NCBI GenBank assembly: GCA_964398655.1 | Contig: CAYNNG010000001.1 | Coordinates: 27,182-91,181 of the forward strand | DNA from: an uncultured Oscillospiraceae bacterium | GTDB lineage: Bacteria > Bacillota > Clostridia > Saccharofermentanales > DTU023 | Direction of reading: 5' to 3' | DNA length: 64,000 bases | Shown here: positions 36,394-51,800 of the stretch, in pieces | How positions within the stretch are numbered: position 1 is the stretch's first letter | Layout of the letters: every line of letters starts with the position of its first letter | Position numbers and translations under genes: made by a program | The notes under the pieces: generated by a model | What the model saw: only the letters and a program-made list of their open reading frames with translations | Told to the model about the DNA's origin: nothing | Databases searched by the model: none

Positions 36394-39177
36394 TTACAAG
36401 TTTTCTAAACTGGGAGCTAGGATTTCCTTAGGCTTAAAGCCCAGGTAATCACCGGCCACCAGGCTATAAGGGACACCATCTATCAGCTGCTGGTTAAGGC
36501 AGTAGGGAGAACCAGCGTGGTGGATATGGCCGAAGACACAAGCTACTGCGCCCGCTTCACGTATGAGGCTTGTGACCTGGCTAGGGGCGAGGTTCTTGGC
36601 AAAGGGTGGGAAGTGGGTCATGACAATGAGCTGACGGTCCCCAGGAATCTGACCTGCGGCCTGCAAAGACAACTGCAGCCTGGCCTCTTCTCTCTGTAAA
36701 ATCTTGTCGTCCGCGGCCGTAAAGCGCTGGTCGTCTGGCCAGAGCCAGAGCCGGCTGCCCGCGATCATATAACGGTCTCCCAGGGGCAGGGCCGTATTTT
36801 GCAGGAAATGCAGGCTGGACCAGCCTTGGTCCTGGGCATAGCCGCGAATTTTATTCAGGCTCTGCCACCAATAGTCATGGTTGCCCCGCAGGAGGATTTT
36901 CTGCCCCGGCAAGTCCTGTAGAAGCTGGAGGTCAGCAACAGCCTCAGGCAGGTGCATGGCCCAGGAAATATCTCCCGGGATGAGCACATAGTCCTGGTCA
37001 GCTACTAGTTCCCGCCACTGGTCCTGCAAGCGCCGGGTGTGGTCTTTCCAGACTGGCCCAAACTTATCCATGGGCTTGTCCACACTCTGGGAGAGGTGGA
37101 GGTCAGCAATCGCAAAAATACGGGCTTCCTGGCTTACGGAAAGTTCGGCCGGCAGGGGCTCCGGGCTGGGCAAATCTTCCGTTAGGTCTGAAGTTTCTTT
37201 CCCCTTATGTTCCAGATCCACCTGGTCCTCTGCCTGGCTGGTGTCAGCTGCAGGTTCGGCTGAATCCAGGGCTTCTTCCGGGTGAAAGTGCTGGTAGACC
37301 GCCAGGGCCACGGAACTGGGTAGCTTGGCCTCGCTCTCCAGTTCGCCCAAACTGGCTTGCGACACGCCCTTAAGCGTTTTAAAGGCCTGGAGCAAGGCCT
37401 TGCGGCGGGCAGGCCCTACACCAGGGATCTCCTCCAGGCTCCAGCGCAGGTTCCGCTTTCGGGCCAGCTTCTTCTGCTGGCGCCCGGCAAAGCGGTGGGC
37501 CTCGTTTTGAATCGCCGTAATCAGGCGGAGCAAGCTGAGGTCCTTATTGCGGTCCTCCGTGCTCATCCGGGCTTCTTGCTGGGGGTCGTGGCGGAGCAGG
37601 ATTTCAGTCTGGTCCTGGCGGATCAGGCCTCGTGACCGGTGCCGGTCATCCTTAACCATGCCGGCCAGGGCAATTTCGGGCGCCGTGGCCTGAATTAAGG
37701 GGTCGATGGCTGCCACATGGCCCGCGCCGCCGTCCAAGAGGATGAGCTGGGGCCTTTGGCCAAAATCTTCGTCCGTCAAGCGGGCCAAGCGGCGGGAAAT
37801 GGCCTCCTGCATTGAGGCATAGTCGTCCTGGCCCTCCACACGCTTGATATTAAAGTGCCGGTAGGCCGAGCGTTTGGGCTTGCCGTCCATAAAGACAATC
37901 ATGGAAGCTGCCTTGTCGTCCTGGCTCAGGTTGGCGATATCGTAGGCTTCAATGCGGTGGGGATATTCTTGCAAGCCCAGGCGATCAGCCAGGTCTTCCA
38001 GGGTGCGTTCCAAGTTGCCCTGTCCCCCGCCCACCAAGACATGGCGGACTAAACTTTCTTCCGCGTTCCGCTCTGCCATCTCCAGCCAGCGCAACTTAAG
38101 TCCGCGCTGGGGCCGGTGGACCCGAATCTTGCGTCCGGCCTGGCTGCGCAGCCAGGCTTCCACCTGCTCTAAACCGTCCGGCAGGTCAGAAAGCAGAATT
38201 TCCTGGGGCAGCTGGTGACCCTGGGAGTAGTATTGCAAAATAAAGGCCTGGTAAAGTTCTGCCCGGCTCTCCCCCCGGTCGGGGAAGAAATAGGAACCGG
38301 TAGAGATAATCCGGCCTTCCCTCACCTTCAAGATGCGTACGGCCTTTTCTGAATCATTCTCGGCCAAAGCCAGGACATCCGCGTCGCTCTCCAGCTCAGG
38401 CAGGGCGATGGTCTGCCGCTCATTCAGTTTTTCCAGAGCTTGGAGTCGGTCGCGCAGACGGGCGGCCTGCTCAAAGTCCAGGCGGGCAGCGGCCTTCCGC
38501 ATATCCTGTTCCAACTTGCGGCTGAAGGGTACGGATTTGCCCTCCAAAAATTGGACCAACTCGTCAATCACGGCCCGATATTCCTCTTGGGGCACCGAGC
38601 CCAGGCAGGGACCAATACACTTGCCAATATAATAATTCAGGCAGGGCCGTTCCTTGCCAATATCTCGGGGCAAGACCCGGCGGCAGCGTTTGAGGGGGAA
38701 AATTTCATAAATAGCTTGCAAAGCCCGGTAGAGGTCTCCACTTTGGTAGGGTCCAAAGTAGCGCACGCCCTCTTTGTAGTCGTCCAAGATATGGAAAGAT
38801 TTAACTACCCGGGGATAAGCTTCATTCAGGGTAACCCGAATATAGGGGTACTCTTTATCATCTCGCAGCAGGATATTGTAGCGAGGTTCATAGTGCTTGA
38901 TGAGGTTATTTTCCAGGATCAGGGCTTCCAGCTCATTGGCGCAAAGCACATAATCAAAATCCCGGATGTGAGAAATCATGGCCAGGACTTTGGCATTGCC
39001 CTGGGGATTCTCGGTAAAATAAGAACGCAGACGGCGGGGGAGGTTTATGGCCTTCCCCACATAAATAACCTGCCCAGCTTCATCCTTCATCAGGTAGACG
39101 CCGGGTTCTTCAGGTATGAGGTCTAGCCGAACATCAAGATTCGGAAGGTCTGGCTGGGGGTTCACAAGGGCGGTCAA
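36394..39177 (-). CDS. uvrC: Excinuclease ABC subunit C fused to a C-terminal calcineurin-like metallophosphoesterase domain
   Basis: Single 927-aa ORF. It has a GIY-YIG domain (GVYLMKDEAGQVIYVGKAINLPRRL), a UvrBC domain, an RNaseH-like endonuclease domain and HhH (IPGVGPARRKALLQAF). A ~55-aa acidic linker follows, then a 243-aa phosphoesterase domain (36394-37125): IFAIADLHLS, GDISWAM, RGNHDYWW, THFPP, GHIHH. Confidence 0.85.
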   Translation of the reverse strand: MTALVNPQPDLPNLDVRLDLIPEEPGVYLMKDEAGQVIYVGKAINLPRRLRSYFTENPQGNAKVLAMISHIRDFDYVLCANELEALILENNLIKHYEPRYNILLRDDKEYPYIRVTLNEAYPRVVKSFHILDDYKEGVRYFGPYQSGDLYRALQAIYEIFPLKRCRRVLPRDIGKERPCLNYYIGKCIGPCLGSVPQEEYRAVIDELVQFLEGKSVPFSRKLEQDMRKAAARLDFEQAARLRDRLQALEKLNERQTIALPELESDADVLALAENDSEKAVRILKVREGRIISTGSYFFPDRGESRAELYQAFILQYYSQGHQLPQEILLSDLPDGLEQVEAWLRSQAGRKIRVHRPQRGLKLRWLEMAERNAEESLVRHVLVGGGQGNLERTLEDLADRLGLQEYPHRIEAYDIANLSQDDKAASMIVFMDGKPKRSAYRHFNIKRVEGQDDYASMQEAISRRLARLTDEDFGQRPQLILLDGGAGHVAAIDPLIQATAPEIALAGMVKDDRHRSRGLIRQDQTEILLRHDPQQEARMSTEDRNKDLSLLRLITAIQNEAHRFAGRQQKKLARKRNLRWSLEEIPGVGPARRKALLQAFKTLKGVSQASLGELESEAKLPSSVALAVYQHFHPEEALDSAEPAADTSQAEDQVDLEHKGKETSDLTEDLPSPEPLPAELSVSQEARIFAIADLHLSQSVDKPMDKFGPVWKDHTRRLQDQWRELVADQDYVLIPGDISWAMHLPEAVADLQLLQDLPGQKILLRGNHDYWWQSLNKIRGYAQDQGWSSLHFLQNTALPLGDRYMIAGSRLWLWPDDQRFTAADDKILQREEARLQLSLQAAGQIPGDRQLIVMTHFPPFAKNLAPSQVTSLIREAGAVACVFGHIHHAGSPYCLNQQLIDGVPYSLVAGDYLGFKPKEILAPSLENL

Positions 39178-39546: not shown

Positions 39547-40761
39547 CTATAGTTGGACTTCCAGGATCAGCGCATCTTCGCGTGGTTTGTCGTAGTAGTT
39601 TTTACGTTCCCCACAGGGCAGAAAACCCAAGCTGGCATAAAGTTTACGGGCCGCTTCATTGGACTTGCGGACTTCCAGGGTCAGGCGGTGCACACCCCGG
39701 GACTTGGCGTCGGCCATCAGGCCAGCCAGGAGTTTTTGCCCCAGGCCCTGGTGGCGGTGGTCCGGCAGTATGGCTATATTGAGAATTTCTGCCTCGTCCA
39801 CATGGAGGTAGTAGCCCCCATAGCCCAGGATTTCTTCCGCCGGCTTGGCCTGGTCCCCGCTTCCCTCTTCTTCATCCGGCTGAGGCTGCGGTAGATAAAT
39901 GAGAAACAGCTTGGCGTCCTTGTTTTCAGGCGCTAGCTGGTGGGCCAGGGCCTTGCGGGACCAGGGGGTAGAGAAGACGGCCCGCTCGATCTGGTGGATG
40001 GTATCCAGGTCTTTCAGACCCGCAGGGCGGAGCTGAACCTGGGCCAGATGCTCTGACCGCACCCGTTCGGCCTGGGTAGGAGCACAGTAATTGGCCGCAG
40101 TTTCTTGCCAGGAGGGTTTTTCCCCACGGTCCGCGGCTTCTTGGGCCAGGAGGCCCAGGTTATAAGGTCGGAGGCAGGCCACACTGGCATCTAGGACTTC
40201 TAAGGTAAAATGCTGGCTGGCCTCAGGATCCAGATCATAGGCTGCTTGGATAGCCGAGGCCCCATCGCCCAAAAGATAGAGGGTGGGCTGGCTTTTACGG
40301 CCTAGGTAAAAGAGCTTCTTCAATTCTGCCATGAGGTCTTGCCCATAACGGTTGGCTTCGGGCAAAACCCTTTGCCCTCCGCGGTAAAGGCAAGAGAAGG
40401 TCCGGCCAGATCGGGCATCCAAGGCCGGCAGGAAGAAGGCATCCATAGCCCGATAAGGCGCCGCCATCAGGGCCAGGCTGGAAAAAGCATAGATAGGTTT
40501 GTCCGCTTGCCAGGCCCAGGTTTTGGCCGTGGCCAGGCCAATACGGATGCCGGTATAGGATCCCGGTCCGCTCGTCACCGCAAAGGCTTCAAGCTCAGAA
40601 AAATCTACCCCCGCCTCGGTCAGAAGTTCTTTTAACTGAGGCAGGAGGGTAACAGAATGCTTAAAACCTGCTACAAGGCTGCGTTCCGCCAAAAGCTGAC
40701 CGTCCTTGACCAGGGCTAGGCCCAAGCTTTTACTTGATGTGTCCAAGGCTAAAATTAGCAT
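39547..40761 (-). CDS. tsaB: tRNA t6A protein TsaB fused to a RimI-type GNAT acetyltransferase
   Basis: N-terminal half: MLILALDTSSKSLGLALV..GPGSYTGIRIG. C-terminal half: AEILNIAILPDHRHQGLGQKLL..RLTLEVRKSNEAARKLYASLGF. Confidence 0.85.
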   Translation of the reverse strand: MLILALDTSSKSLGLALVKDGQLLAERSLVAGFKHSVTLLPQLKELLTEAGVDFSELEAFAVTSGPGSYTGIRIGLATAKTWAWQADKPIYAFSSLALMAAPYRAMDAFFLPALDARSGRTFSCLYRGGQRVLPEANRYGQDLMAELKKLFYLGRKSQPTLYLLGDGASAIQAAYDLDPEASQHFTLEVLDASVACLRPYNLGLLAQEAADRGEKPSWQETAANYCAPTQAERVRSEHLAQVQLRPAGLKDLDTIHQIERAVFSTPWSRKALAHQLAPENKDAKLFLIYLPQPQPDEEEGSGDQAKPAEEILGYGGYYLHVDEAEILNIAILPDHRHQGLGQKLLAGLMADAKSRGVHRLTLEVRKSNEAARKLYASLGFLPCGERKNYYDKPREDALILEVQL

Positions 40762-42118: not shown

Positions 42119-42330
42119 GCTTTCCTCCTAAATAGGTCTTTCTTGGCCTTGGTGGACTTTGCCCTTTTCGGCTGGCGAGGCCAGCTAAAAACAGCAAGGC
42201 CCACCAAATGGGCGCTTAGCTAAAATAAGGCTTTCACTAGACTTTGTCAAATAATTTTTCAAATTAACCCAACAAAACTCGTCTTTTCGCGAATTAACTC
42301 GTTTTTTCTCCGTTTTACGTTTTTGAGGGT

Positions 42331-43809
42331 TTAATAATGCCTTTCCTCGTACCGGCGGCGGATACGGTCCTGCTTTTTCTTGTGATGGAGTTGGTAGGCC
42401 AAGATCAAGGTCAGGGTCAAGAAAAGTGAGAAGCCTAAGAAAATCAAGAACAAGGGCAGGCGGCCAACTACAATCTCGTCTGCGGCCACGGTCTGCTGGT
42501 CTGCTTGTTGAAGTTCCGGAGCGACGACCGTAAAGGACGGGAGAGGCTCCGAAGGTCCGGGCAGGGTTTCCTGAGCCGCCGCGGCGGCCTTGGCCCCCAA
42601 GAGAGGGTCCGCCATGGTAGGCCAGGGGTAGGTTCCGGGTTCATATTCCGCAGCTTCGTCTTTGCGCGGAGCTCCCATGGCCTTAGCCCCTTCTTCTAAA
42701 AGCGTATGCGACATGATGGCGGAACCTACATAGGAATTGGGATATTCGCCGGTATAGGCGGCATCAAAGAGCACAGCAATCAGGTGCCGGCCATCGTAGG
42801 TGGTGGCCGCAGTCGCCAGGCAGTCCCCCGCAATATCGGTCATACCGGCTTTGATGCCATCGATGGAGGCCAGCCAGGGAGAACCCCAGCCACCATCACC
42901 ATAGGTTACCAGGTAGTTGCCATTGACGATATTGGACCAGCCGGACATGGGGTGAAAATTTGTGGGAGGCAGGCTGTACAGCTTAGTGCCCACCAGACTT
43001 TGAAAGAGGGGGTGACCCATAGCCCGGCGGATGATTTTGACCATATCTTCACAGGTTGTGTGGTGGTCGACATAGCCAAAACCACAGGGATCAAGGAAGT
43101 AGGTGTTTTCACAGCCCAGCTCCTGGGCCTTTTGGTTCATGAGGGCGACAAAATTGTCGATCGTCCCCCCATAATTCTCTGCTAAAGCATTGGCCACCTC
43201 GTTAGCCGACCGCATCATCATGGCGTACAGGCAGGAAATGGTGGGGCAGATTTCCCCAGGCATAAAGCCCGCGGTAGTAGATTCTGGCGCGGGCATGGCG
43301 CAGGACAGGTCACTAAAGTAGATGGGCTTGGCCGGATCGTAGTCGGGATGTTCCAGAATTACCAGGGCCGTCATGATCTTGGTCATAGAGGCCGGATAGG
43401 CAATGGCGTCCGTGTTCTCGCCCAATAGAATCTCGCCTGTATCTCCATCGGCCACGATATAGGCCGCGCAGGCAATCTGATCCAAGCTGGGCCAAGCATC
43501 TACGGGGCGGGGCACATCGCTCACCATCTCGGACCACTCTTGGTCGCTGAATTCCAGCCGGGTAGTCTCCTCACTGCGGCGGTCTTCGTCTTCCGACTCG
43601 GCTTCCTCCTCGGGCTGGTCCTCGTCCAAGACCAGGTCCAGATCTTGGGGATCCGCCTCGGGCACCGCTGCCTCACCTATGGGCAGGGTCTCAGGAGACG
43701 CTTCTTCCGCCTTTACTTGCCAGCCAAGACTTAAGACCGGGCTGCAGAGCAGCGAGACCAAGGCTAAGCAGCTAAGCAGGAACTGGAATTTCGCTGACCC
43801 CTTATTCAT
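42331..43809 (-). CDS. Serine-type D-Ala-D-Ala carboxypeptidase (PBP5/S11-like) with an acidic N-terminal spacer and a C-terminal TM anchor
   Basis: Signal peptide. SxxK (PASMTK), SxN (RSANE) and KxG (IKAGMT) motifs. C-terminal helix LPLFLIFLGFSLFLTLTLILAY. Confidence 0.85.
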   Translation of the reverse strand: MNKGSAKFQFLLSCLALVSLLCSPVLSLGWQVKAEEASPETLPIGEAAVPEADPQDLDLVLDEDQPEEEAESEDEDRRSEETTRLEFSDQEWSEMVSDVPRPVDAWPSLDQIACAAYIVADGDTGEILLGENTDAIAYPASMTKIMTALVILEHPDYDPAKPIYFSDLSCAMPAPESTTAGFMPGEICPTISCLYAMMMRSANEVANALAENYGGTIDNFVALMNQKAQELGCENTYFLDPCGFGYVDHHTTCEDMVKIIRRAMGHPLFQSLVGTKLYSLPPTNFHPMSGWSNIVNGNYLVTYGDGGWGSPWLASIDGIKAGMTDIAGDCLATAATTYDGRHLIAVLFDAAYTGEYPNSYVGSAIMSHTLLEEGAKAMGAPRKDEAAEYEPGTYPWPTMADPLLGAKAAAAAQETLPGPSEPLPSFTVVAPELQQADQQTVAADEIVVGRLPLFLIFLGFSLFLTLTLILAYQLHHKKKQDRIRRRYEERHY

Positions 43810-45349
43810 GAAGGCCCGCCTCTCGCTGACGGCTATGGAGGGAAATCAGGTCAAAGACCTGATCTCCCAGGCCCTCCTGGGTGGACAGGTTTTGGAAAAT
43901 CTGCTCGTCTCCCAGCTGGCCTGCCTCCCGCAGGAGGTAGGAGGCCAAGGCCGGAGGAAAATCTATGCCACTCTCCTCTACCAGGATCTCCGCCATTTGC
44001 GCCCGGCTCTTGTCTTTACTAAAGGCACGGCCAAAGATCGCGTCCGAGGCAAGCTCCCAAGACCAGAGGGGGTTATAAGAAGATAAGACAACCTGCAAGT
44101 CCCCTTCTTTCGCAGACTTGCTGTCCAGCTTGCAGGCCGCAAAGCCCGCCGCGGCACCTCCGTCCAGGAGGTAGTCAGAGCGGTCGTAGAGTGACCGGCA
44201 GGACCGGTTGATGGCTTTGTCATTGTTGAAGATGGCCCGCAGATGACTGCGCCAGGACCGTTGGTAGTCACGACCTAGGCTAAAGCGGCCCGTTTCGCGC
44301 AAGTCCTGCAGGGACTTAGCGAGGAGCTCGCGGTTGCGGCCAATTAATTCAAACAGCAGGGCTTCAAAGGCGGGAGGCCAAATAGTGTTGAGGCTGTCCA
44401 CGGGACCCGACTTGAATTTGCGTTTGAGACTGAAACTGCCAGACCGGAAAAAATCGCTGAAGAGGCGGTTGGCATTTTCGGCGATGAGACTGTACCCAAC
44501 CGGCAAGCCCATGCTTTTGACATACAGGGCCGCCAGGCTGAAGTCCAGATCGTTAGAAGTCAAGGCCAAGTCCATGATCTTGCCTGCTTCCAAGAGTTCA
44601 TGGCCGAAAAGTTCCGACAGGGTAATGAGGAGCAGGGACATCTGGCAAACTAGGGAGATAGGCGAACTTTCATCCGCGGCTAAGAGCCGGATATCCTGCT
44701 GGGCCAAACGGGAGCAGAGGTCACAGCCTTGCCAGAGCTTGCGGTAGGCCCCTTCCGCTTCCTCCAGGCCTTGTCCGAAATAAAAGCCCAGGGCCAGGTC
44801 CTTGCTGAGATAGGACTCTAATCTGGGTAAATCCGCAGGATCAAAACGTCCATCCAAAAAATAGAGGGGGTAAAGCGGGTCTGTGGGCTGATTGGCCGCT
44901 GCGAGGGCCAGAACCTGGTCCAGGCGGGGGCCAGCCAGGCAATAATATATTTCGTCCTCCTGGGCCCAGCAGTTAAAGAGTTCGCGAGCCAGGGCTTGGG
45001 CGTAGTCTGCCCGGCTGCCGGAAGGCCCCTTATCCGCGAAAATCACTACCTCATCCAGTTTATAAGGATTGAGGGCCTTAACCTCAAAAGGCCGGCTGGC
45101 AAAGTCTTCTCCAAAAGCCCGGTCACAAATCTGGGCCAGGGTGTTGGCGTCTGGGTCATCAATGAAGATACGGAGGCAGGCCGCCATCTGCTGGCTAAAG
45201 GTCAAACCTTGCAAGGAAGTGAGAAAGTCCTTGGGCAGGCTGGGAAAGTCCGCTGGGACAAAGGTACCCCCCTGAGGGCCGTAGGCAGCCAGGCTGGCTT
45301 CTTTAAAGCTTAAAGTTAAATCAGGATCACGCGTGGATATAAAGTGCAA
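43802..45349 (-). CDS. Threonine-synthase-like protein with degenerate catalytic motifs
   Basis: MHFISTRDPDLTLSFKEASLAAYGPQGGTFVP matches the ThrC N-domain. IFADKGPSGSRADYA sits where ThrC has LFHGPTxAFKD. IAENANRLFSDFFRSG sits where ThrC has ATNxNDIxxRF. Overlaps the carboxypeptidase start by 8 nt. Confidence 0.6.
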   Translation of the reverse strand: MHFISTRDPDLTLSFKEASLAAYGPQGGTFVPADFPSLPKDFLTSLQGLTFSQQMAACLRIFIDDPDANTLAQICDRAFGEDFASRPFEVKALNPYKLDEVVIFADKGPSGSRADYAQALARELFNCWAQEDEIYYCLAGPRLDQVLALAAANQPTDPLYPLYFLDGRFDPADLPRLESYLSKDLALGFYFGQGLEEAEGAYRKLWQGCDLCSRLAQQDIRLLAADESSPISLVCQMSLLLITLSELFGHELLEAGKIMDLALTSNDLDFSLAALYVKSMGLPVGYSLIAENANRLFSDFFRSGSFSLKRKFKSGPVDSLNTIWPPAFEALLFELIGRNRELLAKSLQDLRETGRFSLGRDYQRSWRSHLRAIFNNDKAINRSCRSLYDRSDYLLDGGAAAGFAACKLDSKSAKEGDLQVVLSSYNPLWSWELASDAIFGRAFSKDKSRAQMAEILVEESGIDFPPALASYLLREAGQLGDEQIFQNLSTQEGLGDQVFDLISLHSRQREAGLHE

Positions 45350-45415
45350 AGTCTTCTCTCCTTAAGACAGGTTAGGTAAATTAACTGGTTGGCAGCTGTG
45401 AGCCCCTGTACAGGC

Positions 45416-46297
45416 TTAGGGAGTCGTGTTCGGCTCCCTTGTAAGGTCGGGCTCAGAATTTTCTGCGAGGCTTTCCTGGTCCGGGGCAGTTTCTTCACTG
45501 GCTAAACCCAGGCTAGATGGTCTAGTTTCCTCACTCGGCCTAGGTGGTCTGCCTGCGGTCAGCCAGGCCTGATAGTCTTCTAAAATCTTGCCCACCTCGG
45601 GGTAATCCGCTGCCCGCTGGTGCAGTTCCTCTTCCAGCCAGTCCAGCTTTTCGATGCGTTCAATCTCCAGGGCCTGGCCAGCTAAAATCTGGGGCCGCCA
45701 GTAGAAGAAAAAGATGAGGAGAATCAGGATACCTACCCCTACAGCTATGATAATCGTGTGGGCGGTTTTGCGTTTTTCTTGCGGGCTCTCAAAAATTAGG
45801 GAGGGCTGGTTGTGGATACTGTCGCTGGTTTCCTGGTCCAGGGATGGGGCCTTTTGCAGGATACTCTCCATGGCGATTTGCTTTTTAACCGGGGTTAAAG
45901 ATCTTTCCCGCCGGTGGAGCTTGGCATTTTCCCGCCGAATGGCTCCGGCTTCTCTTTGCGCCTCTCGCAATTCCTGTTCCAGCTGCTGTTTTTCTTCCGG
46001 CTCCATCTCCAAAAGATGAGCCCGGCCCAGATAGTCCTCCGCTTCCTCAAACTTGCCAGCTGCCCCCAGGAGGACACCGTAAAGGTGGTTGGCCTGGGGG
46101 AAAAGCGGATAGTCACGGCAAATTTGGGCCAGAGCGGACAGAGCTTGTTCCTCCTGGCCGGAAACATAGAGTTTTAAGGCCGCATTGTAGGAAGCCGCCA
46201 CCCGGTAGAGCTCGCCCGGGGGAGCAAAAAAGCTAAGGTCAGCCTCGGTGAGAGGCTGAAAGTAGTCTATACGCAGTTTCCAGTTAAACAGGCTCAT
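45416..46297 (-). CDS. TPR-like repeat protein with one central TM helix
   Basis: YNAALKLYVSGQEEQALSALAQI..ANHLYGVLLGAAGKFEEAEDYLGRA (TPR-like). TM helix HTIIIAVGVGILILLIFFFYW. Confidence 0.6.
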   Translation of the reverse strand: MSLFNWKLRIDYFQPLTEADLSFFAPPGELYRVAASYNAALKLYVSGQEEQALSALAQICRDYPLFPQANHLYGVLLGAAGKFEEAEDYLGRAHLLEMEPEEKQQLEQELREAQREAGAIRRENAKLHRRERSLTPVKKQIAMESILQKAPSLDQETSDSIHNQPSLIFESPQEKRKTAHTIIIAVGVGILILLIFFFYWRPQILAGQALEIERIEKLDWLEEELHQRAADYPEVGKILEDYQAWLTAGRPPRPSEETRPSSLGLASEETAPDQESLAENSEPDLTREPNTTP

Positions 46298-46320: not shown

Positions 46321-47775
46321 TTATTCGCCATCCAGGGCCTGGCCCCAGAGTTCACGCCGCAGGTAGGGGCGCAGGTTGCCGATGAGGTAAAGGGAGCCAA
46401 AAACGACCAGACCTTTGCCTTCTCGTTCGGCCTGGGCGAGAGCAGCCAGCAAGGTTTTTTCCATATCTGGACTATAGCAAATTTTTCGTGCCAGGTCTTG
46501 CTGGGCCAGTTTATCTGGGCTGTGCAGGGGCTCTTCCAAATTCCAAACCTGGTCATCTTCCCAGCCTAAAACTCCCTGGAGCTCGCTGGCTAAGGCATGA
46601 ACCTGCATGGTCCGGGGCACCGGGCATTCTGTGCAGTAAACGGTAGCAGGCGTCCGATTCTCGCCATTTAGGACCAAGGAAAGCATTTTGGCGTGTTCTT
46701 TGTCCGCCAGGATACCCACCATATAAATATGTTCTTCGTCATTAAAGTGGGCATGAATTTCCCGGGCCAGGGCAGCACAACCTTGGACATTGTGGGCGCC
46801 GTCGATCATGACCAGGGGGTCTTGCCGCATAATTTCCAGACGACCGGGCCAACGTGTGCGGGCCAGGCCTTCCGCAATCTGTTCGTCCGTAGCGAAGCTG
46901 CGGCAGGCCTTAATTGCCAGGCCGGCATTCATCTGCTGATAGTCCCCGCGCAGCTTGATACGCCAGAGGCGGTCTGAGCCAGCCAACTTAAAGCTTTGGC
47001 CCTGGCGGTCCACCTCATGGTCAGAAAACATGTTAGCAGACACCAGGGTCAGGGGGGATCCCAGGTCCTGGGCCTTGCGCTCTACTACCTCCAAGGCAGA
47101 GCCCCCCTCCTGGGAGGTCTCCTGGATATCTCTAGGATCATACAAAATAACCGGGCAGCCCTGTTTAATAATTCCGGCCTTTTCAACCGCAATTTCACCC
47201 AGGGTATTGCCCAGGCGGTCCATATGGTCGTAGCCCAAGGCCGTAATCACGGAAACTAGGGGCTGGGTCAAGACATTGGTTGAATCCAGGCGTCCGCCCA
47301 TACCAACTTCAATCACCGCCATATCAACTTTTTCTCGAGCATAGTAGAGATAGGCCACAGCAGTCAGCATCTCAAAGACAGTAGGGTGATCAAAGCCTTC
47401 CGTCAGCATCTGGTCAATGGATACCCGGATTTCGGTTAATAGGGCCGCAAAATCTTCTTCACTAATTTCGGGGCTGCGGAAGTGGTCTTCAAAGTCCGCC
47501 AGGCCTTGCCGGCCATCAATAATTCGGATGCGCTCGTTAAAGCGTTCCAGGTAGGGAGAGGTGAACCAACCCACCTTCTTATCCGCCACGGCGGCTACAT
47601 GGGCACAATAGGCAGACACCGAACCCTTGCCGTTGGTCCCTGCAATATGAACGCAGGGGTAGTTTTCCTGGGGATTGCCCAGAAGGTCTAGGAGTTTCGT
47701 AATGCGCTGCAGACCGGGACGGATGCCAAAATCATTGGCTTGGAAAAGATAGTCTAAAGCTTCTGGAAAATTCAT
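46321..47775 (-). CDS. folC: Bifunctional folylpolyglutamate synthase / dihydrofolate synthase
   Basis: VHIAGTNGKGSV..EVGMGGRLDSTNV..DGAHN. Confidence 0.92.
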   Translation of the reverse strand: MNFPEALDYLFQANDFGIRPGLQRITKLLDLLGNPQENYPCVHIAGTNGKGSVSAYCAHVAAVADKKVGWFTSPYLERFNERIRIIDGRQGLADFEDHFRSPEISEEDFAALLTEIRVSIDQMLTEGFDHPTVFEMLTAVAYLYYAREKVDMAVIEVGMGGRLDSTNVLTQPLVSVITALGYDHMDRLGNTLGEIAVEKAGIIKQGCPVILYDPRDIQETSQEGGSALEVVERKAQDLGSPLTLVSANMFSDHEVDRQGQSFKLAGSDRLWRIKLRGDYQQMNAGLAIKACRSFATDEQIAEGLARTRWPGRLEIMRQDPLVMIDGAHNVQGCAALAREIHAHFNDEEHIYMVGILADKEHAKMLSLVLNGENRTPATVYCTECPVPRTMQVHALASELQGVLGWEDDQVWNLEEPLHSPDKLAQQDLARKICYSPDMEKTLLAALAQAEREGKGLVVFGSLYLIGNLRPYLRRELWGQALDGE

Positions 47776-47924: not shown

Positions 47925-48419
47925 TTATTTTTCTTTCTTGCGGAATACCAGAAACTTACCTACCAGGTAGTTGGCCAGCACCACAAAAACTGCTCCGATC
48001 AGCTTAGCCCAGGGGACCCGGAAGAAGGGCACCTTGTCCTGGAAGTCCAAGACATTATAGAAGAGGGCAAAAAAGCCGTTATCAAAAATCAGAGAAATCA
48101 GGATGCGGGAGCTGAAAAAGCTTAAGAATTCCGGCCACAGGTGACCCGTAGAATGGAAGACAAAGCCGCGGTTAATCCAAAAGGCAAAGATAATGGAGAT
48201 TACGATAGCCAAGCTATTAAAGACAATATTTCTACCATTTTCGTAGCCAAAGGCCTCACCCAGGAGGGTGAGGACCACAAAATTAACCAGGGTCGTCAGG
48301 ACACCGGCAATGAGGTAACGGATAATTTCTGACTGCAGGAAGCGGGCGATCAAGCCCTTAAGCTTAGCGCTCAGGCCCTGCTGACCTTGCGGGTCTTCCC
48401 TGACTTCTGTCTCTGGCAT
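47925..48419 (-). CDS. GtrA family membrane protein
   Basis: IIRYLIAGVLTTLVNFVVLTLLGE..C-terminal VLANYLVGKFLVFRK. Start moved to ATG 48419, because the track ORF overlaps the upstream gene. Confidence 0.8.
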   Translation of the reverse strand: MPETEVREDPQGQQGLSAKLKGLIARFLQSEIIRYLIAGVLTTLVNFVVLTLLGEAFGYENGRNIVFNSLAIVISIIFAFWINRGFVFHSTGHLWPEFLSFFSSRILISLIFDNGFFALFYNVLDFQDKVPFFRVPWAKLIGAVFVVLANYLVGKFLVFRKKEK

Positions 48420-48436
48420 ATACCGACTCACCGCTC

Positions 48437-49612
48437 TTAGCCTAGGAGGTTGCGTTTGAGCGTATAAACCAAGACTGCTAAGGAAGAGAGCCCCACGATG
48501 GAGACCAAGAGGATCTTCCAACTATTGTCTGCGCTGCCACCTAAGAAAGAGCCCTGTTTGTTGGCTTGGGACTCACTGGCCTTGAGTTTAGCCAGGTCAT
48601 AGTACTTAAAACGCTGGGTATTCTCTTCATAGGTATAAAAGGCCGGGGCCGACTGCGACTTGAGGTAATAAAGGGTCAGCTGCTTGCTTTCTGACTTGGC
48701 GACGGGAATGTTAACCCCCATCATTTGCGCGGTATCACCTTTAAAGCCGGCCGGAATTTCTTCCAGCGGCAGGCCATTTTCTGGCACATAGAGTAATTCA
48801 CCAGTAACAGATTTCAGTTCAGATTCCGGTTTTGCCGCCTCGGAGGGCTCGGTCCGCTTAGGTTCTGGCACACTGGGTTTGCTCGGAGCTGTGGTGGCGG
48901 CGGGGGTAGTCTCTTCCTCGTTAAGCTTGCCGATCCCGTAGCCTTCAGGGTCCTGACCCTCTAGGCCTGCGGCCGGCTGCAACTGGTTGTCAGGATTATA
49001 AGGTTCTTCAATGCCGGGAGCTGGGGGTTCTTGCGGCAGGTCACCCGGAGGCAGAGGATCATTGGATAAGGGCTGGTCCACAATATCTGTAATCTGGAAG
49101 TCCAGGTTTTCGCTGGTGGCGTCTACTTTAGTGCCATCTGACAGCTGGACATAGGAGGGCTGCTGAGACGAGTCAAACTTAAATGAGGTCGGGCCGATGG
49201 CCGCGTCCGCCTTGGCGGTAAATTCTAGCTCGGCAATCACGTCGCCCGGAGCAGCGTAAGGAATACCCATGGCCAGGAGGGCGATGATTCCATTTTTATC
49301 CTGCATTTCAAAAATATTCAGGGAATCGGCTGGCGAGGCTACCTCACCGCCCAAGGTACCCAGGAAGCTGGAATTGCCCTTGACAAAGTTAAAGTTGTCC
49401 ACCGGATATTTTACATAAACTTGGACCAGGTTAACTCCGACCGCGGCGCCGGTAGCAAAGATCTGCACCTTGAAGCTCTGGCCTCTCTGGACGGCGTCTG
49501 GTGAAGTCATACCAACCACTGCGGTCGCCAGGACCGGTTGGGATAAGAAAAGGCATATACACAAAAAGAGCAAGAGAAGTTTACTTCCCCTAGAGTCTGT
49601 GCTTCTACTCAT
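48437..49612 (-). CDS. Secreted, C-terminally membrane-anchored protein with a cohesin-like N-terminal domain
   Basis: Start placed at ATG 49612 behind GGAGA. Signal peptide KLLLLFLCICLFLSQPVLA. A ~150-aa beta-rich segment (GQSFKVQIFATGAAVGVNLVQVYVKYPVDNFNFVKG..VIAELEFTAKADAAIGPTSFKF) resembles cohesin modules. A P-rich linker and the TM helix ILLVSIVGLSSLAVLVYTL follow. Confidence 0.5.
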   Translation of the reverse strand: MSRSTDSRGSKLLLLFLCICLFLSQPVLATAVVGMTSPDAVQRGQSFKVQIFATGAAVGVNLVQVYVKYPVDNFNFVKGNSSFLGTLGGEVASPADSLNIFEMQDKNGIIALLAMGIPYAAPGDVIAELEFTAKADAAIGPTSFKFDSSQQPSYVQLSDGTKVDATSENLDFQITDIVDQPLSNDPLPPGDLPQEPPAPGIEEPYNPDNQLQPAAGLEGQDPEGYGIGKLNEEETTPAATTAPSKPSVPEPKRTEPSEAAKPESELKSVTGELLYVPENGLPLEEIPAGFKGDTAQMMGVNIPVAKSESKQLTLYYLKSQSAPAFYTYEENTQRFKYYDLAKLKASESQANKQGSFLGGSADNSWKILLVSIVGLSSLAVLVYTLKRNLLG

Positions 49613-49688
49613 GTCATCATCTCCAATCTGTGGGATTATATGAGGGATTTTAGGAGGAAAATCTCGCAGCAAAAGCTGGCAGCCTCGC

Positions 49689-51800
49689 CTATTCCACTAG
49701 GGTTTGGGCAATCGGCGCAACCTGAATTACATGGTTTTTCAGGGCCCAGAGGTCCAGCATATTTACGAGGCCATCCTGGTTAATATCCATAGCCAGGTCA
49801 TAAGCCGTATCCACGTTGATCTCCCCGCGGATAATGCGGTCACGCATGGCCTGGAAGTCGCTGAGGTCGATATAACCGTCGCCATTGGCATCGCCTAAAA
49901 TAACCAGGGGAAACTGGTTGACCGCCTGGCCATTTTCTCTCAATTGAAGAAGAGAGCCTGTACCGGCTCTTTCTATAGCATTCTGTCCGTCAGCTGCCAG
50001 TACTTCTATGTTATAACTAGGCGGTAAATTGCTGTACTGGCCTTTGAGATAGCTTGCAGCGTTGCTCCCCTGCAAGGGGTCTGCCCCGTAAAGATAGCCC
50101 AGGGAGGAAATCTGATAGCTGGAGGAGGAAATCTTGGGCAGGCCCTCCGCATCTACGTTGGCTGTGAGGGGGCTTTGTTCCACATAAAGCCGGTAGTTGC
50201 GGCTGACCCCGTTATTCGCGACCACCTGTAAAATAATTTCGTTGGGACCGGGCCTTAACTGGTAGACCCCCATGCCCGCCACCGTGGAATCCGGGCTCCA
50301 AGGCAGGGCATCCACTGCCAGGCCCCGGCTGGCCGCGGAGATTTCTAGCTTATACTCATAGCGTTCGGGACGAAAGTTGGGAATCACCTGGCCATTGACC
50401 CGGATAGCCTTCAGCCAGTTGTTGGGATTGCCCCCGCCGGTAGGTGAAGGTGTAAGCTCTGGCATATCCAGGAAAACTGGGATCAGGAACTCTTTACTTT
50501 CCTGTAGGGCTCCCATCTCCAGGTAGGCATTATAGACATTGATCGCCTCATACTCCGGAGCCAAAACATTGCCCATGTATTGGTGGGTAAAGGGCCGAGT
50601 ATAGCGCGAGACCAAGTTCCACTTCTGCAAGTAGAGGGTATGCTGGTCTACCTTAATGTAGTCTTTGCCGATAAAAATCGCCCCGCCCTTGATGGCCTTG
50701 GCAGGATCTGTCCAAGGGAAGAGCATTTCCGCATTCTTATAGTCTGGATATCCCGCGATGCCGTCGCGGGCCGTCACCAGGCCCATGTAGAGGGGGTCTC
50801 CCCCACCCGTGGCCCCGATATTGTAGAAGTTATAATAGCCCCGCACATCTTCGGAATAGTCTCCGGACACGGAATGTGAGCCATCTGGTCCCACCTCTTG
50901 GATAATACGGGACAGAAGATGGTAGGGTGAAACCCCAGACACTTGACCGGCTTCTTCCAGCAGGCTGGCATAGTCCGTATCAAGACTGCGGCTTTGGCCC
51001 TCTTGGTCCAGGTACGGGATAGGCGAAGCTGCCATAAAGGTATTATTAATTACAGACACCAGACCATGCCGGTAGGCCAGGTCGGGATTATAACGCTGAC
51101 TTTCAAATTGGAAAATCTGCACCTCGTCCAAAAAGTTGCGGGGATCCATCTGGAAGGCAATGAGCTCGGCTGAAGCCCCTACCCAGCCCTGTTCGTATTC
51201 CCGCCAGGAGTTGGTGTAGTAGTTAAAATCCGCATCCGCCTTAGACTTGTACTCGGGGGGAGAGTTGGCAATTACCAGGTTAACCCCTGGCCGGTACTCG
51301 CCCTTGACGGCGCGGTCAAAGGTATAGTTGGTATGCAGAGGAGAGAAAGTCCATTGGGGGTAGGCGGCGTGCAGCTCCATGAGGGGACCGATATAGGATT
51401 CCGGGAAACCTTTAGCTACCAGGTCCTGCCGAAATTCCTCGCTGCCCAGGCCCGGCATCACGGGCGGGAGCTCAAGCTCATATTGAATACGGATAAAGGC
51501 AGACGAGACATAGCCATGCATATTGTTATACATGATCTCGTACCAGGTGCTGTTGCCTCCGACATCCTCGCCTGGAACCTCACCCAAGACAGTCACTTCC
51601 ACCCCTTTTTTCAGTTCTCTGAGGGGCTCGCGGGAAGTATCTGGGTCCCGGCGCATATAACTGGAAGGGTCTGCCGTCACAAATCCTGATACAGGGTAGA
51701 CAGGCTCTGCCTCCTGGTCTTCGTGGAAAAATACCAGAACCTCCACCAAGAGGAGGAGGATTAAAATTGCTCCGAGGAGGGTCTTACCTCTATGCTTCAC
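49689..51800 (-). CDS. Peptidoglycan hydrolase: SH3b-like + GH73 N-acetylglucosaminidase + cadherin-like beta-sandwich + C-terminal dockerin
   Basis: GH73-type blocks: SPYHLLSRIIQEVG, YYNFYNIGATGG, DQHTLYLQKWNL, THQYMGN. Cadherin-like: NWLKAIRVNGQVIPNFRPERYEY. Dockerin repeats: GDANGDGYIDLSDFQAMRDRII and MDINQDGLVNMLDLWALKNHVI. N-terminal signal-anchor helix. Confidence 0.8.
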   Translation of the reverse strand: MKHRGKTLLGAILILLLLVEVLVFFHEDQEAEPVYPVSGFVTADPSSYMRRDPDTSREPLRELKKGVEVTVLGEVPGEDVGGNSTWYEIMYNNMHGYVSSAFIRIQYELELPPVMPGLGSEEFRQDLVAKGFPESYIGPLMELHAAYPQWTFSPLHTNYTFDRAVKGEYRPGVNLVIANSPPEYKSKADADFNYYTNSWREYEQGWVGASAELIAFQMDPRNFLDEVQIFQFESQRYNPDLAYRHGLVSVINNTFMAASPIPYLDQEGQSRSLDTDYASLLEEAGQVSGVSPYHLLSRIIQEVGPDGSHSVSGDYSEDVRGYYNFYNIGATGGGDPLYMGLVTARDGIAGYPDYKNAEMLFPWTDPAKAIKGGAIFIGKDYIKVDQHTLYLQKWNLVSRYTRPFTHQYMGNVLAPEYEAINVYNAYLEMGALQESKEFLIPVFLDMPELTPSPTGGGNPNNWLKAIRVNGQVIPNFRPERYEYKLEISAASRGLAVDALPWSPDSTVAGMGVYQLRPGPNEIILQVVANNGVSRNYRLYVEQSPLTANVDAEGLPKISSSSYQISSLGYLYGADPLQGSNAASYLKGQYSNLPPSYNIEVLAADGQNAIERAGTGSLLQLRENGQAVNQFPLVILGDANGDGYIDLSDFQAMRDRIIRGEINVDTAYDLAMDINQDGLVNMLDLWALKNHVIQVAPIAQTLVE

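Follow-up and report, generated by a model that had tools for sequence, protein, structure and literature searches.

The window analyzed here, a 64,000-nt stretch of genomic DNA from an uncultured Oscillospiraceae bacterium (assembly GCA_964398655.1, contig CAYNNG010000001.1), contains a gene for a 515-aa homolog of threonine synthase (ThrC) that has lost the lysine to which ThrC binds its cofactor pyridoxal 5'-phosphate (PLP), together with the motifs that contact the cofactor and the substrate. The explanation that we favor, and to which we give about an even chance, is that this ThrC-like protein is a pseudoenzyme derived from ThrC, with an intact fold and no catalytic activity, which forms the cytoplasmic subunit of a module with a bitopic membrane protein encoded directly upstream. 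Judging from the sequences, ThrC-like is probably non-catalytic, and a physical interaction with the upstream protein, which has a domain resembling tetratricopeptide repeats (TPR), would be the most likely purpose of the retained fold. The gene has the following features:

43802..45349, minus strand: gene of the putative pseudoenzyme ThrC-like, 515 aa, TTG start, predicted to be cytoplasmic (open reading frame (ORF), Pfam, AlphaFold2, hhalign, dN/dS, hydropathy)
45356..45363, minus strand: Shine-Dalgarno sequence AAGGAGAG, 6 nt 5' of the TTG start (read from the sequence)
44999..45028, minus strand: degenerate Schiff-base motif GPSGSRADYA, residues 108-117, which pairs with GPTxAFKDxA (translation, MAFFT, hhalign)

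The ThrC-like protein and its former active site

The TTG start codon is sound, because it is preceded by the Shine-Dalgarno sequence, a strong ribosome-binding site, and because the same aligned methionine is the start in all ThrC-like homologs. Hydropathy analysis revealed neither a transmembrane (TM) segment nor a signal peptide. At its 3'-end the gene overlaps the start of an S11 carboxypeptidase gene by 8 nt (cATGAATAAg).

The relationship to ThrC extends over the whole length of the protein. Pfam identified the N-terminal domain Thr_synth_N (PF14821) at residues 3-79 with an E-value of 4e-12 and 46.6 bits versus a cutoff of 25. There was no Pfam match to the catalytic PALP domain (PF00291/PF24857) even at E<=1, and nothing meaningful matched in NCBIfam. 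Precomputed Pfam annotations gave the same picture, the closely related clusters P0001-P0007 having PF14821 only and the canonical matches PF00291 plus PF24857. A phmmer search of the PDB aligned residues 3-468 with the ThrC of Streptococcus pneumoniae (8g1y, E 2.5e-21), and hhalign against a profile of 21 canonical ThrCs resulted in a probability of 100% (E 6e-50) over 469 aligned columns. The AlphaFold2 model has a mean predicted local distance difference test score (pLDDT) of 90.1 and a pTM of 0.93, and the best six PDB entries found with it by Foldseek are all ThrCs (TMq 0.69-0.82), the best being again 8g1y (E 2e-27, TMq 0.82). By the predicted structure, ThrC-like is a full-length homolog of class II ThrC that keeps the whole ThrC fold.

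In contrast to the fold, the motifs of the active site have been replaced throughout. The canonical motifs and their counterparts in ThrC-like are:

HGPTxAFKD, in ThrC-like KGPSGSRAD
ATSGDTG, in ThrC-like AGPRLDQ
SANSIN, in ThrC-like AADESS
PTGNFGN (PLP-phosphate loop), in ThrC-like TSNDLDF
ASNxN, in ThrC-like AENAN
SPSMDI, in ThrC-like VDSLNT
SNxER, in ThrC-like PAFEA
DPHTA, in ThrC-like DGGAA
STAxPxKF, in ThrC-like SSYNPLWS

The position of the Schiff-base lysine is occupied by Ala114 (codon 45008-45010) and the preceding phenylalanine position by Arg113; this pairing is regarded as correct because the MAFFT alignment, the hhalign alignment, and the phmmer alignment with 4f4f agree on it. 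A lysine that might have migrated, K107, stands under the catalytic lysine in the phmmer alignment with 8g1y; it was rejected for lack of conservation and because Ala114 takes this position in the MAFFT and hhalign alignments. SANSIN and STAxPxKF, which make the O3' and N1 contacts of ThrC, are both replaced, and so are all motifs that bind the substrate and its phosphate (ATSGDTG, SPSMDI, SNxER, and DPHTA). Such a protein would be unable to hold PLP as an internal aldimine or to perform the chemistry of ThrC.

A preliminary description of this DNA, which had been made from the letters and a list of ORFs, had arrived at exactly these coordinates and this length for the minus strand gene, and it had also recognized the 8-nt overlap with the carboxypeptidase gene, the ThrC N-terminal domain, the degenerate motifs, and an upstream TPR/TM protein. 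All of this agrees with the present results, the upstream protein being a single-pass membrane protein with a predicted TPR-like N-terminal domain. The description had proposed a structure prediction and a profile-profile alignment as checks; the former yielded the ThrC fold, and the latter put Ala114 at the Schiff-base position. Its statement that lysine is replaced by arginine was thus right about the loss and wrong about the residue, Arg113 lying one position earlier. The idea of a pseudoenzyme or a repurposed fold gains from the intact fold, from the loss of the lysine and of the PLP and substrate motifs in all relatives of the clade described below, and from purifying selection.

Class II ThrCs (EC 4.2.3.1), of which the enzymes of S. 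pneumoniae (8g1y), yeast (1kl7), Brucella (4f4f), and Escherichia coli (1vb3) are examples, share with ThrC-like the domain order and the fold over about 470 residues, including the structural residues G27, G28, P32, G108, P109, D115, G281, P283, G304, E329, and D396. ThrC-like differs from them by the missing Schiff-base lysine, the missing PALP match, the replaced motifs, an identity of only 18-24%, an additional C-terminal extension of about 40 residues, and a gene location outside of a threonine operon. Because none of the catalytic features of the class is present, ThrC-like should not be filed as a threonine synthase. When four canonical ThrCs were compared by tblastn with the window and with five related loci (L001-L005), only the ThrC-like gene was matched.

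A word-indexed search of 5.8 billion proteins identified eight ThrC-like clusters, which have 42-100% identity and PF14821 as their only domain, and from which canonical ThrCs are clearly set apart with 22-24% identity. An exhaustive hidden Markov model search of 1.84 billion representatives revealed a graded series of further relatives, and inspection of the motif columns over 161 sequences showed that the Lys-less, motif-degenerate state is present in clusters P0016-P0027 and in many more. In a neighbor-joining tree 30 clusters form one clade; this method may attract long branches, and 16 of the 30 clusters are independently linked by synteny. None of the 30 has a lysine at the Schiff-base column, which contains A, F, Q, Y, R, L, E, M, H, or G instead. 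Of the positions with a conservation of 90% or more among 100 canonical ThrC representatives, 71 have been lost by the clade. The sole lysine that is at least 80% conserved in the clade is K278. As it is frequent also in canonical ThrCs and lies outside of the active-site motifs, nothing indicates that the catalytic lysine has moved to another position. The clade has conserved residues of its own, namely, F15, L93, N94, Y96, G111, F333, E334, G337, R338, Y388, D392, Y393, L394, P427, E459, G461, and L501. The distribution of the family is narrow, with relatives in only 3 of 185,579 species genomes, all three of them metagenome-assembled genomes of uncultured Clostridiales/Bacillota. Names for members of the ThrC-like clusters and of the clusters of the upstream protein were looked up, and none was found in any source.

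Degenerate ThrC-like clusters exist also outside of the 30-cluster clade (P0029, P0033, P0038, P0040-P0042, P0052, P0054, P0058, P0060, P0069, P0073, P0075, P0090, P0101, P0112, P0120, P0126, P0127, P0135, and P0159). Many of them do not contain the Schiff-base lysine, while P0033, P0040, and P0042 keep it within otherwise degenerate motifs. ThrC chemistry may have been lost several times, or these clusters may represent intermediates.

The degree of constraint on the old active site was quantified as the mean column entropy of the 57 active-site motif positions versus that of the remaining positions:

Canonical ThrC: 0.44 bits at the motif positions, 2.23 bits at the other positions
30-cluster clade: 2.15 bits at the motif positions, 2.37 bits at the other positions
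Nine closest relatives: 0.69 bits at the motif positions, 1.26 bits at the other positions

Because the two values for the clade are so similar, the old active site has all but lost its selective constraint across the clade. In the nine closest relatives the lower entropy of the old pocket indicates a lineage-specific constraint.

The gene as a whole is under selection. In all, 20 loci were retrieved. The downstream neighbor could be placed in 17 loci (the window included), and 19 loci include upstream sequence. Ratios of nonsynonymous to synonymous substitutions (dN/dS) were determined with the Nei-Gojobori method among the window, L001, and L002; they are approximate, because dS is high (about 1 to 3):

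ThrC-like: dN/dS 0.035-0.066
FolC: dN/dS 0.049-0.060
S11 carboxypeptidase: dN/dS 0.067-0.072
Upstream partner protein: dN/dS 0.047-0.085

ThrC-like is under purifying selection that is as strong as that on its housekeeping neighbors. Nevertheless, it is the fastest-diverging gene of its block, as is evident when the proteins of the distant loci L003-L017 are compared with those of the window (identities):

ThrC-like: 26-46%
Upstream partner: 32-53%
FolC: 41-62%
Carboxypeptidase (Dac): 55-62%
Ribosomal protein L13: 59-80%
Ribosomal protein S9: 70-86%

The upstream membrane protein and the conserved gene block

Three genes upstream of the ThrC-like gene recur in related loci:

45416..46297, minus strand: conserved partner gene, 293 aa, predicted N-in bitopic membrane protein, immediately upstream of the ThrC-like gene (AlphaFold2, hydropathy, synteny)
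46321..47775, minus strand: FolC, folylpolyglutamate/dihydrofolate synthase, 23 nt upstream of the partner gene (TIGR01499, E 2e-97, 327 bits versus a cutoff of 163)
47925..48521, minus strand: GtrA-family small membrane protein (Pfam PF04138, E 4e-15), present in the loci that reach that far

In each of the 16 core-clade loci with upstream sequence, alignment, tblastn, and hmmsearch revealed a partner ortholog that lies immediately upstream and has the same orientation. Overall, the partner is found in 16 of the 19 loci, and the spacing between the two genes ranges from a 29-nt overlap to 101 nt. The partner family is similarly rare as the ThrC-like family: It comprises 14 clusters among the 5.8 billion proteins and has neither a Pfam domain nor a name. 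FolC is the most widely conserved neighbor; it is found upstream of ThrC-like in 18 of 19 loci and is missing only in L005, where it is gone from the block while the pair of partner and ThrC-like genes stays together. The full block has the order dockerin/SH3 protein, cohesin protein, GtrA, FolC, a protein of 255-308 aa without Pfam match (the partner), and ThrC-like, and it recurs throughout the core clade, even where ThrC-like matches the family profile only with an E-value of 1e-56.

The partner has a single TM segment at about residues 180-205. As the charged triplet KRK lies just before it, the predicted topology is N-in. The AlphaFold2 model (pLDDT 74) consists of two short N-terminal helices, four antiparallel helices at residues 27-94 with pLDDT values above 90, a 50-residue helix at residues 100-149, a disordered linker, a TM helix that extends outside of the membrane, a further helix, and a disordered tail. 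TPR families of Pfam matched the protein, but all below the gathering score (E 0.017-0.1). The weak Foldseek matches of residues 27-94 (best E 7e-3, TMt 0.80-0.84, rmsd 1.3-2.3 Å over about 85 residues) are to generic small TPR modules only, many of which bind peptides. "TPR-like" is a reasonable, though not proven, designation for the modeled domain at about residues 27-94. Because ThrC-like has neither a TM segment nor a signal peptide, it should be located on the same side of the membrane as this domain.

Two side observations concern the genes at the upstream end of the block. The listed GtrA ORF (TTG start, 47925-48521) overlaps the end of the cohesin-like ORF (48437-49672, minus strand) by 85 nt; the true GtrA start is probably located further downstream, because the Pfam match begins at residue 68 and the orthologs have lengths of 146-168 aa. 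The region 48437-51800 (minus strand) encodes two proteins, one of 703 aa with SH3_3 and type I dockerin domains and a subsequent one of 411 aa that matches cohesin weakly. Nearly all related loci have this pair, together with GtrA, ahead of FolC. The two proteins seem to be a minimal, conserved pair of cohesin and dockerin at the cell surface. A defense-system or phage origin of ThrC-like or its partner was also considered, and it was rejected because searches with PADLOC and PHROGs yielded no match for either protein.

Possible functions and related systems

In the module that we favor, the fold of ThrC-like would be kept for a non-catalytic purpose while the old active-site positions drift almost freely across the family. 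The cytoplasmic TPR-like domain of the partner would be the docking surface for ThrC-like, and a compact transcription unit, gtrA-folC-partner-thrC-like, would express the module. Between sub-lineages the pocket is hypervariable, while it is conserved within them, and this pattern is easier to reconcile with a co-evolving protein interface than with a metabolite site common to all members or with a conserved new catalytic center. Any links of ThrC-like to the cell envelope (GtrA, cohesin/dockerin, Dac) or to folate (FolC) are suggested by gene order.

Several observations weigh against a pseudoenzyme that is dedicated to the partner. The conservation of the old pocket in the close subfamily is still above average, and the pocket contains new invariant residues there (G111, R113, D115, Y116, D267, D269, E291, N292, and the motif NPLWS), a pattern that is also compatible with a lineage-specific ligand or with a new site of catalysis. 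In a mirror-tree analysis the pair of ThrC-like and partner had the highest value (partial Mantel 0.79 controlling for FolC, p 2e-4), but ThrC-like and GtrA also reached 0.65 with the same control, so that the signal is only suggestive and not specific. The conserved gene order may in part be due to vertical descent in a single lineage. Lastly, the distant Lys-less ThrC-like proteins P0036 (613 aa) and P0045 (591 aa), which are distinguished by long insertions with a high charge and by C-terminal tails resembling coiled coils, are encoded directly after GtrA and a divergent FolC-like gene on contigs that contain no partner gene (L018 3008-4849, L019 2364-4205, and L020 6001-7776). Therefore, the partner is not universally required, and the linkage to FolC is older and wider than that to the partner.

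One alternative is that ThrC-like is a repurposed enzyme with a new site that is independent of PLP or uses a non-covalently bound cofactor, catalyzing another reaction that is possibly tied to FolC or to envelope precursors. The strong purifying selection would be in agreement with this, as would polar residues that are invariant at or near the pocket of the close subfamily (R113, D115, Y116, D267, D269, E291, N292, N426, and W429) or kept clade-wide (N94, Y96, D115, E334, R338, Y388, D392, D396, and E459). However, the pocket is nearly as variable as the rest of the protein in the 30-cluster clade, and R113, D267, D269, and E291 are not kept in syntenic orthologs such as P0017-P0026; a conserved catalytic site would not drift in this way, which weakens the proposal. 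In addition, no model of an enzyme family other than ThrC matches in Pfam or NCBIfam. A repurposed enzyme is thus unlikely.

A second alternative, to which we assign a similarly low probability, is a small-molecule sensor, the pocket of which would bind O-phosphohomoserine, threonine, a derivative of folate or glutamate, or PLP, and which would signal via the TPR/TM partner or FolC to the membrane or the envelope. Ligand-binding pseudoenzymes are common (review PMC10211241), FolC is tightly linked in 18 of 19 loci, and pocket residues are conserved in the close subfamily. However, the former PLP-phosphate loop is now acidic (TSNDLDF), which speaks against a phosphorylated ligand, and the pocket is hypervariable across orthologs. 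Moreover, a signaling function is not reflected by any riboswitch or regulatory RNA nearby (Rfam) or by a DNA-binding or signaling output domain (Pfam, NCBIfam).

The preliminary description had proposed that ThrC-like was recruited into a cell-envelope operon. In this view it would be a functional partner of the downstream carboxypeptidase and might, e.g., regulate or chaperone this penicillin-binding protein (PBP):

42331..43809, minus strand: S11 DD-carboxypeptidase (Dac), the start of which overlaps the ThrC-like stop by 8 nt (PF00768, E 6e-38; motifs and TM segments)

Dac has a signal peptide, a long acidic linker, the motifs SMTK141, SAN201, and KAG320, and a C-terminal TM anchor. The third motif, KAG at residue 320, is a variant of the usual KTG, and the tail after the TM anchor is very basic (HHKKKQDRIRRRYEERHY).

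The overlap in the window, the tight junctions in L001-L006 (from an overlap to a 33-nt gap), the upstream membrane protein, and the presence of GtrA and surface cohesin/dockerin genes in the same block would favor the proposal. However, the two genes are directly adjacent in only 7 of the 17 placeable loci, namely, the window and L001-L006. The preliminary description had named a lack of conservation of the gene pair in relatives as an observation that would speak against its view, and the pair is indeed not conserved beyond this sub-lineage. In L007-L016 the ThrC-like gene is followed by a gene on the opposite strand; L007 and L011-L015 have prfC there, and L016 has a ferredoxin-like gene. 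Two of these loci, L013 and L015, contain ThrC-like, then prfC on the opposite strand, then secDF, and then the Dac-rplM-rpsI block, and therefore Dac belongs to the rplM-rpsI neighborhood. This gene order indicates that Dac came to abut ThrC-like in the sub-lineage of the window when prfC and secDF were lost or moved. In this sub-lineage Dac is probably co-translated with ThrC-like, but it stands outside of the conserved module. Furthermore, ThrC-like is predicted to be cytoplasmic, in contrast to the extracytoplasmic catalytic domain of Dac, and Dac diverges far more slowly. As the adjacency to Dac is restricted to one sub-lineage and the conserved partners are located upstream, recruitment into a cell-envelope operon is not supported beyond this sub-lineage, and a functional partnership with Dac, largely refuted by synteny, is very improbable. 

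That ThrC-like is a decaying thrC remnant, the reading frame of which is open by chance, would fit the loss of all catalytic motifs and the fast divergence, but this is refuted by more than 20 loci in which the ORF is intact and full-length over an identity range of 26-88% and by the dN/dS of about 0.05, and the confident fold prediction and about 20 clade-specific conserved positions also leave it with next to no probability.

The closest functional analog of the favored pseudoenzyme that was found in the literature is the plant protein TSB-like. It is a non-catalytic paralog of the fold-type II PLP enzyme TrpB that differs from TSB at two key residues and allosterically activates TSA (PMC12727527). 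TSB-like is thus a fold-type II PLP paralog that has lost catalysis and contacts a partner, and it could serve as a model for ThrC-like. However, TSB-like acts on its ancestral partner TSA, whereas the active site of ThrC-like is wholly erased and the putative partner, a membrane-anchored protein with a TPR-like domain, is unrelated.

Another fold-type II PLP protein with a moonlighting regulatory role is CysK (O-acetylserine sulfhydrylase), which acts as a docking subunit in the cysteine synthase complex, with CymR, and with CdiA-CT, its cleft taking up the peptide tail of the partner. In contrast to ThrC-like, CysK remains a fully active PLP enzyme, and a peptide in the pocket of ThrC-like is an analogy only. 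If this analogy is extended, ThrC-like and the TPR membrane protein might form a novel two-component module, in which a transmembrane device would have the dead PLP enzyme as its sensor or adaptor arm in the cytoplasm. The device would couple the cytoplasmic state, possibly folate or amino acid metabolism via FolC, to surface assembly (GtrA, cohesin/dockerin, PBP), and the rapidly co-diverging old cleft would dock a peptide of the partner as in CysK. We regard this scenario in its entirety as rather improbable.

Animals also have ThrC homologs that do not make threonine, namely, THNSL1 and THNSL2, the latter of which functions as a PLP phospho-lyase. Clusters P0096, P0099, P0102, and P0117 contain long ThrC-like proteins that are extended at the N-terminus; these keep the lysine of AFKD and the canonical motifs, whereas the present family does not. 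A literature search found no paper that describes a Lys-less threonine synthase family.

Pseudoenzymes that are derived from PLP enzymes have rarely been documented in bacteria. ThrC-like adds a case in which a complete and strongly selected ThrC fold has an active site that was erased and then drifted, together with a fixed genomic partner, and this partner gives rise to a concrete and testable interaction hypothesis. The family also calls for caution in annotation, since the name "threonine synthase", transferred from the match of the N-terminal domain, would wrongly credit genomes with threonine biosynthesis.

Other features of the region

A promoter-like site lies downstream of the carboxypeptidase gene:

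42222..42250, minus strand: TTGACA-17-TATTTT, between Dac and rplM (consensus scan, 10 of 12 matches)

It is likely to mark the downstream boundary of the transcription unit, but it is a weak hint, because the counts of promoter and terminator sites in the region were no higher than in shuffled sequence. Upstream of the cluster, the Rfam scan of the window identified neither a riboswitch nor a T-box nor a leader RNA; the only match in the window is the ribosomal protein L10 leader (RF00557, 14150-14275, minus strand, 49.7 bits).

A link of ThrC-like to the tRNA t6A modification genes tsaE and tsaB, which use threonine, would be conceivable. These genes are located near ThrC-like only in the same sub-lineage in which Dac is adjacent. 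In the window the ORF at 39547-40761 (minus strand) encodes TsaB (TsaD-family domain) fused to a RimI-like GNAT acetyltransferase, with 404 aa in total. L004 and L006 share this fusion, while L005 contains a 260-aa TsaB alone.

A second fusion is encoded at 36394-39177 (minus strand), where a 927-aa ORF combines UvrC (GIY-YIG, UVR, and UvrC RNase H domains) with a C-terminal calcineurin-like metallophosphoesterase. ORFs of similar length are found at this position in L001 (926 aa) and L002 (895 aa), as judged by length only, and in L004 and L005 UvrC and the metallophosphoesterase are encoded by separate adjacent genes. The ORF in the window looks like a real lineage-specific gene fusion.

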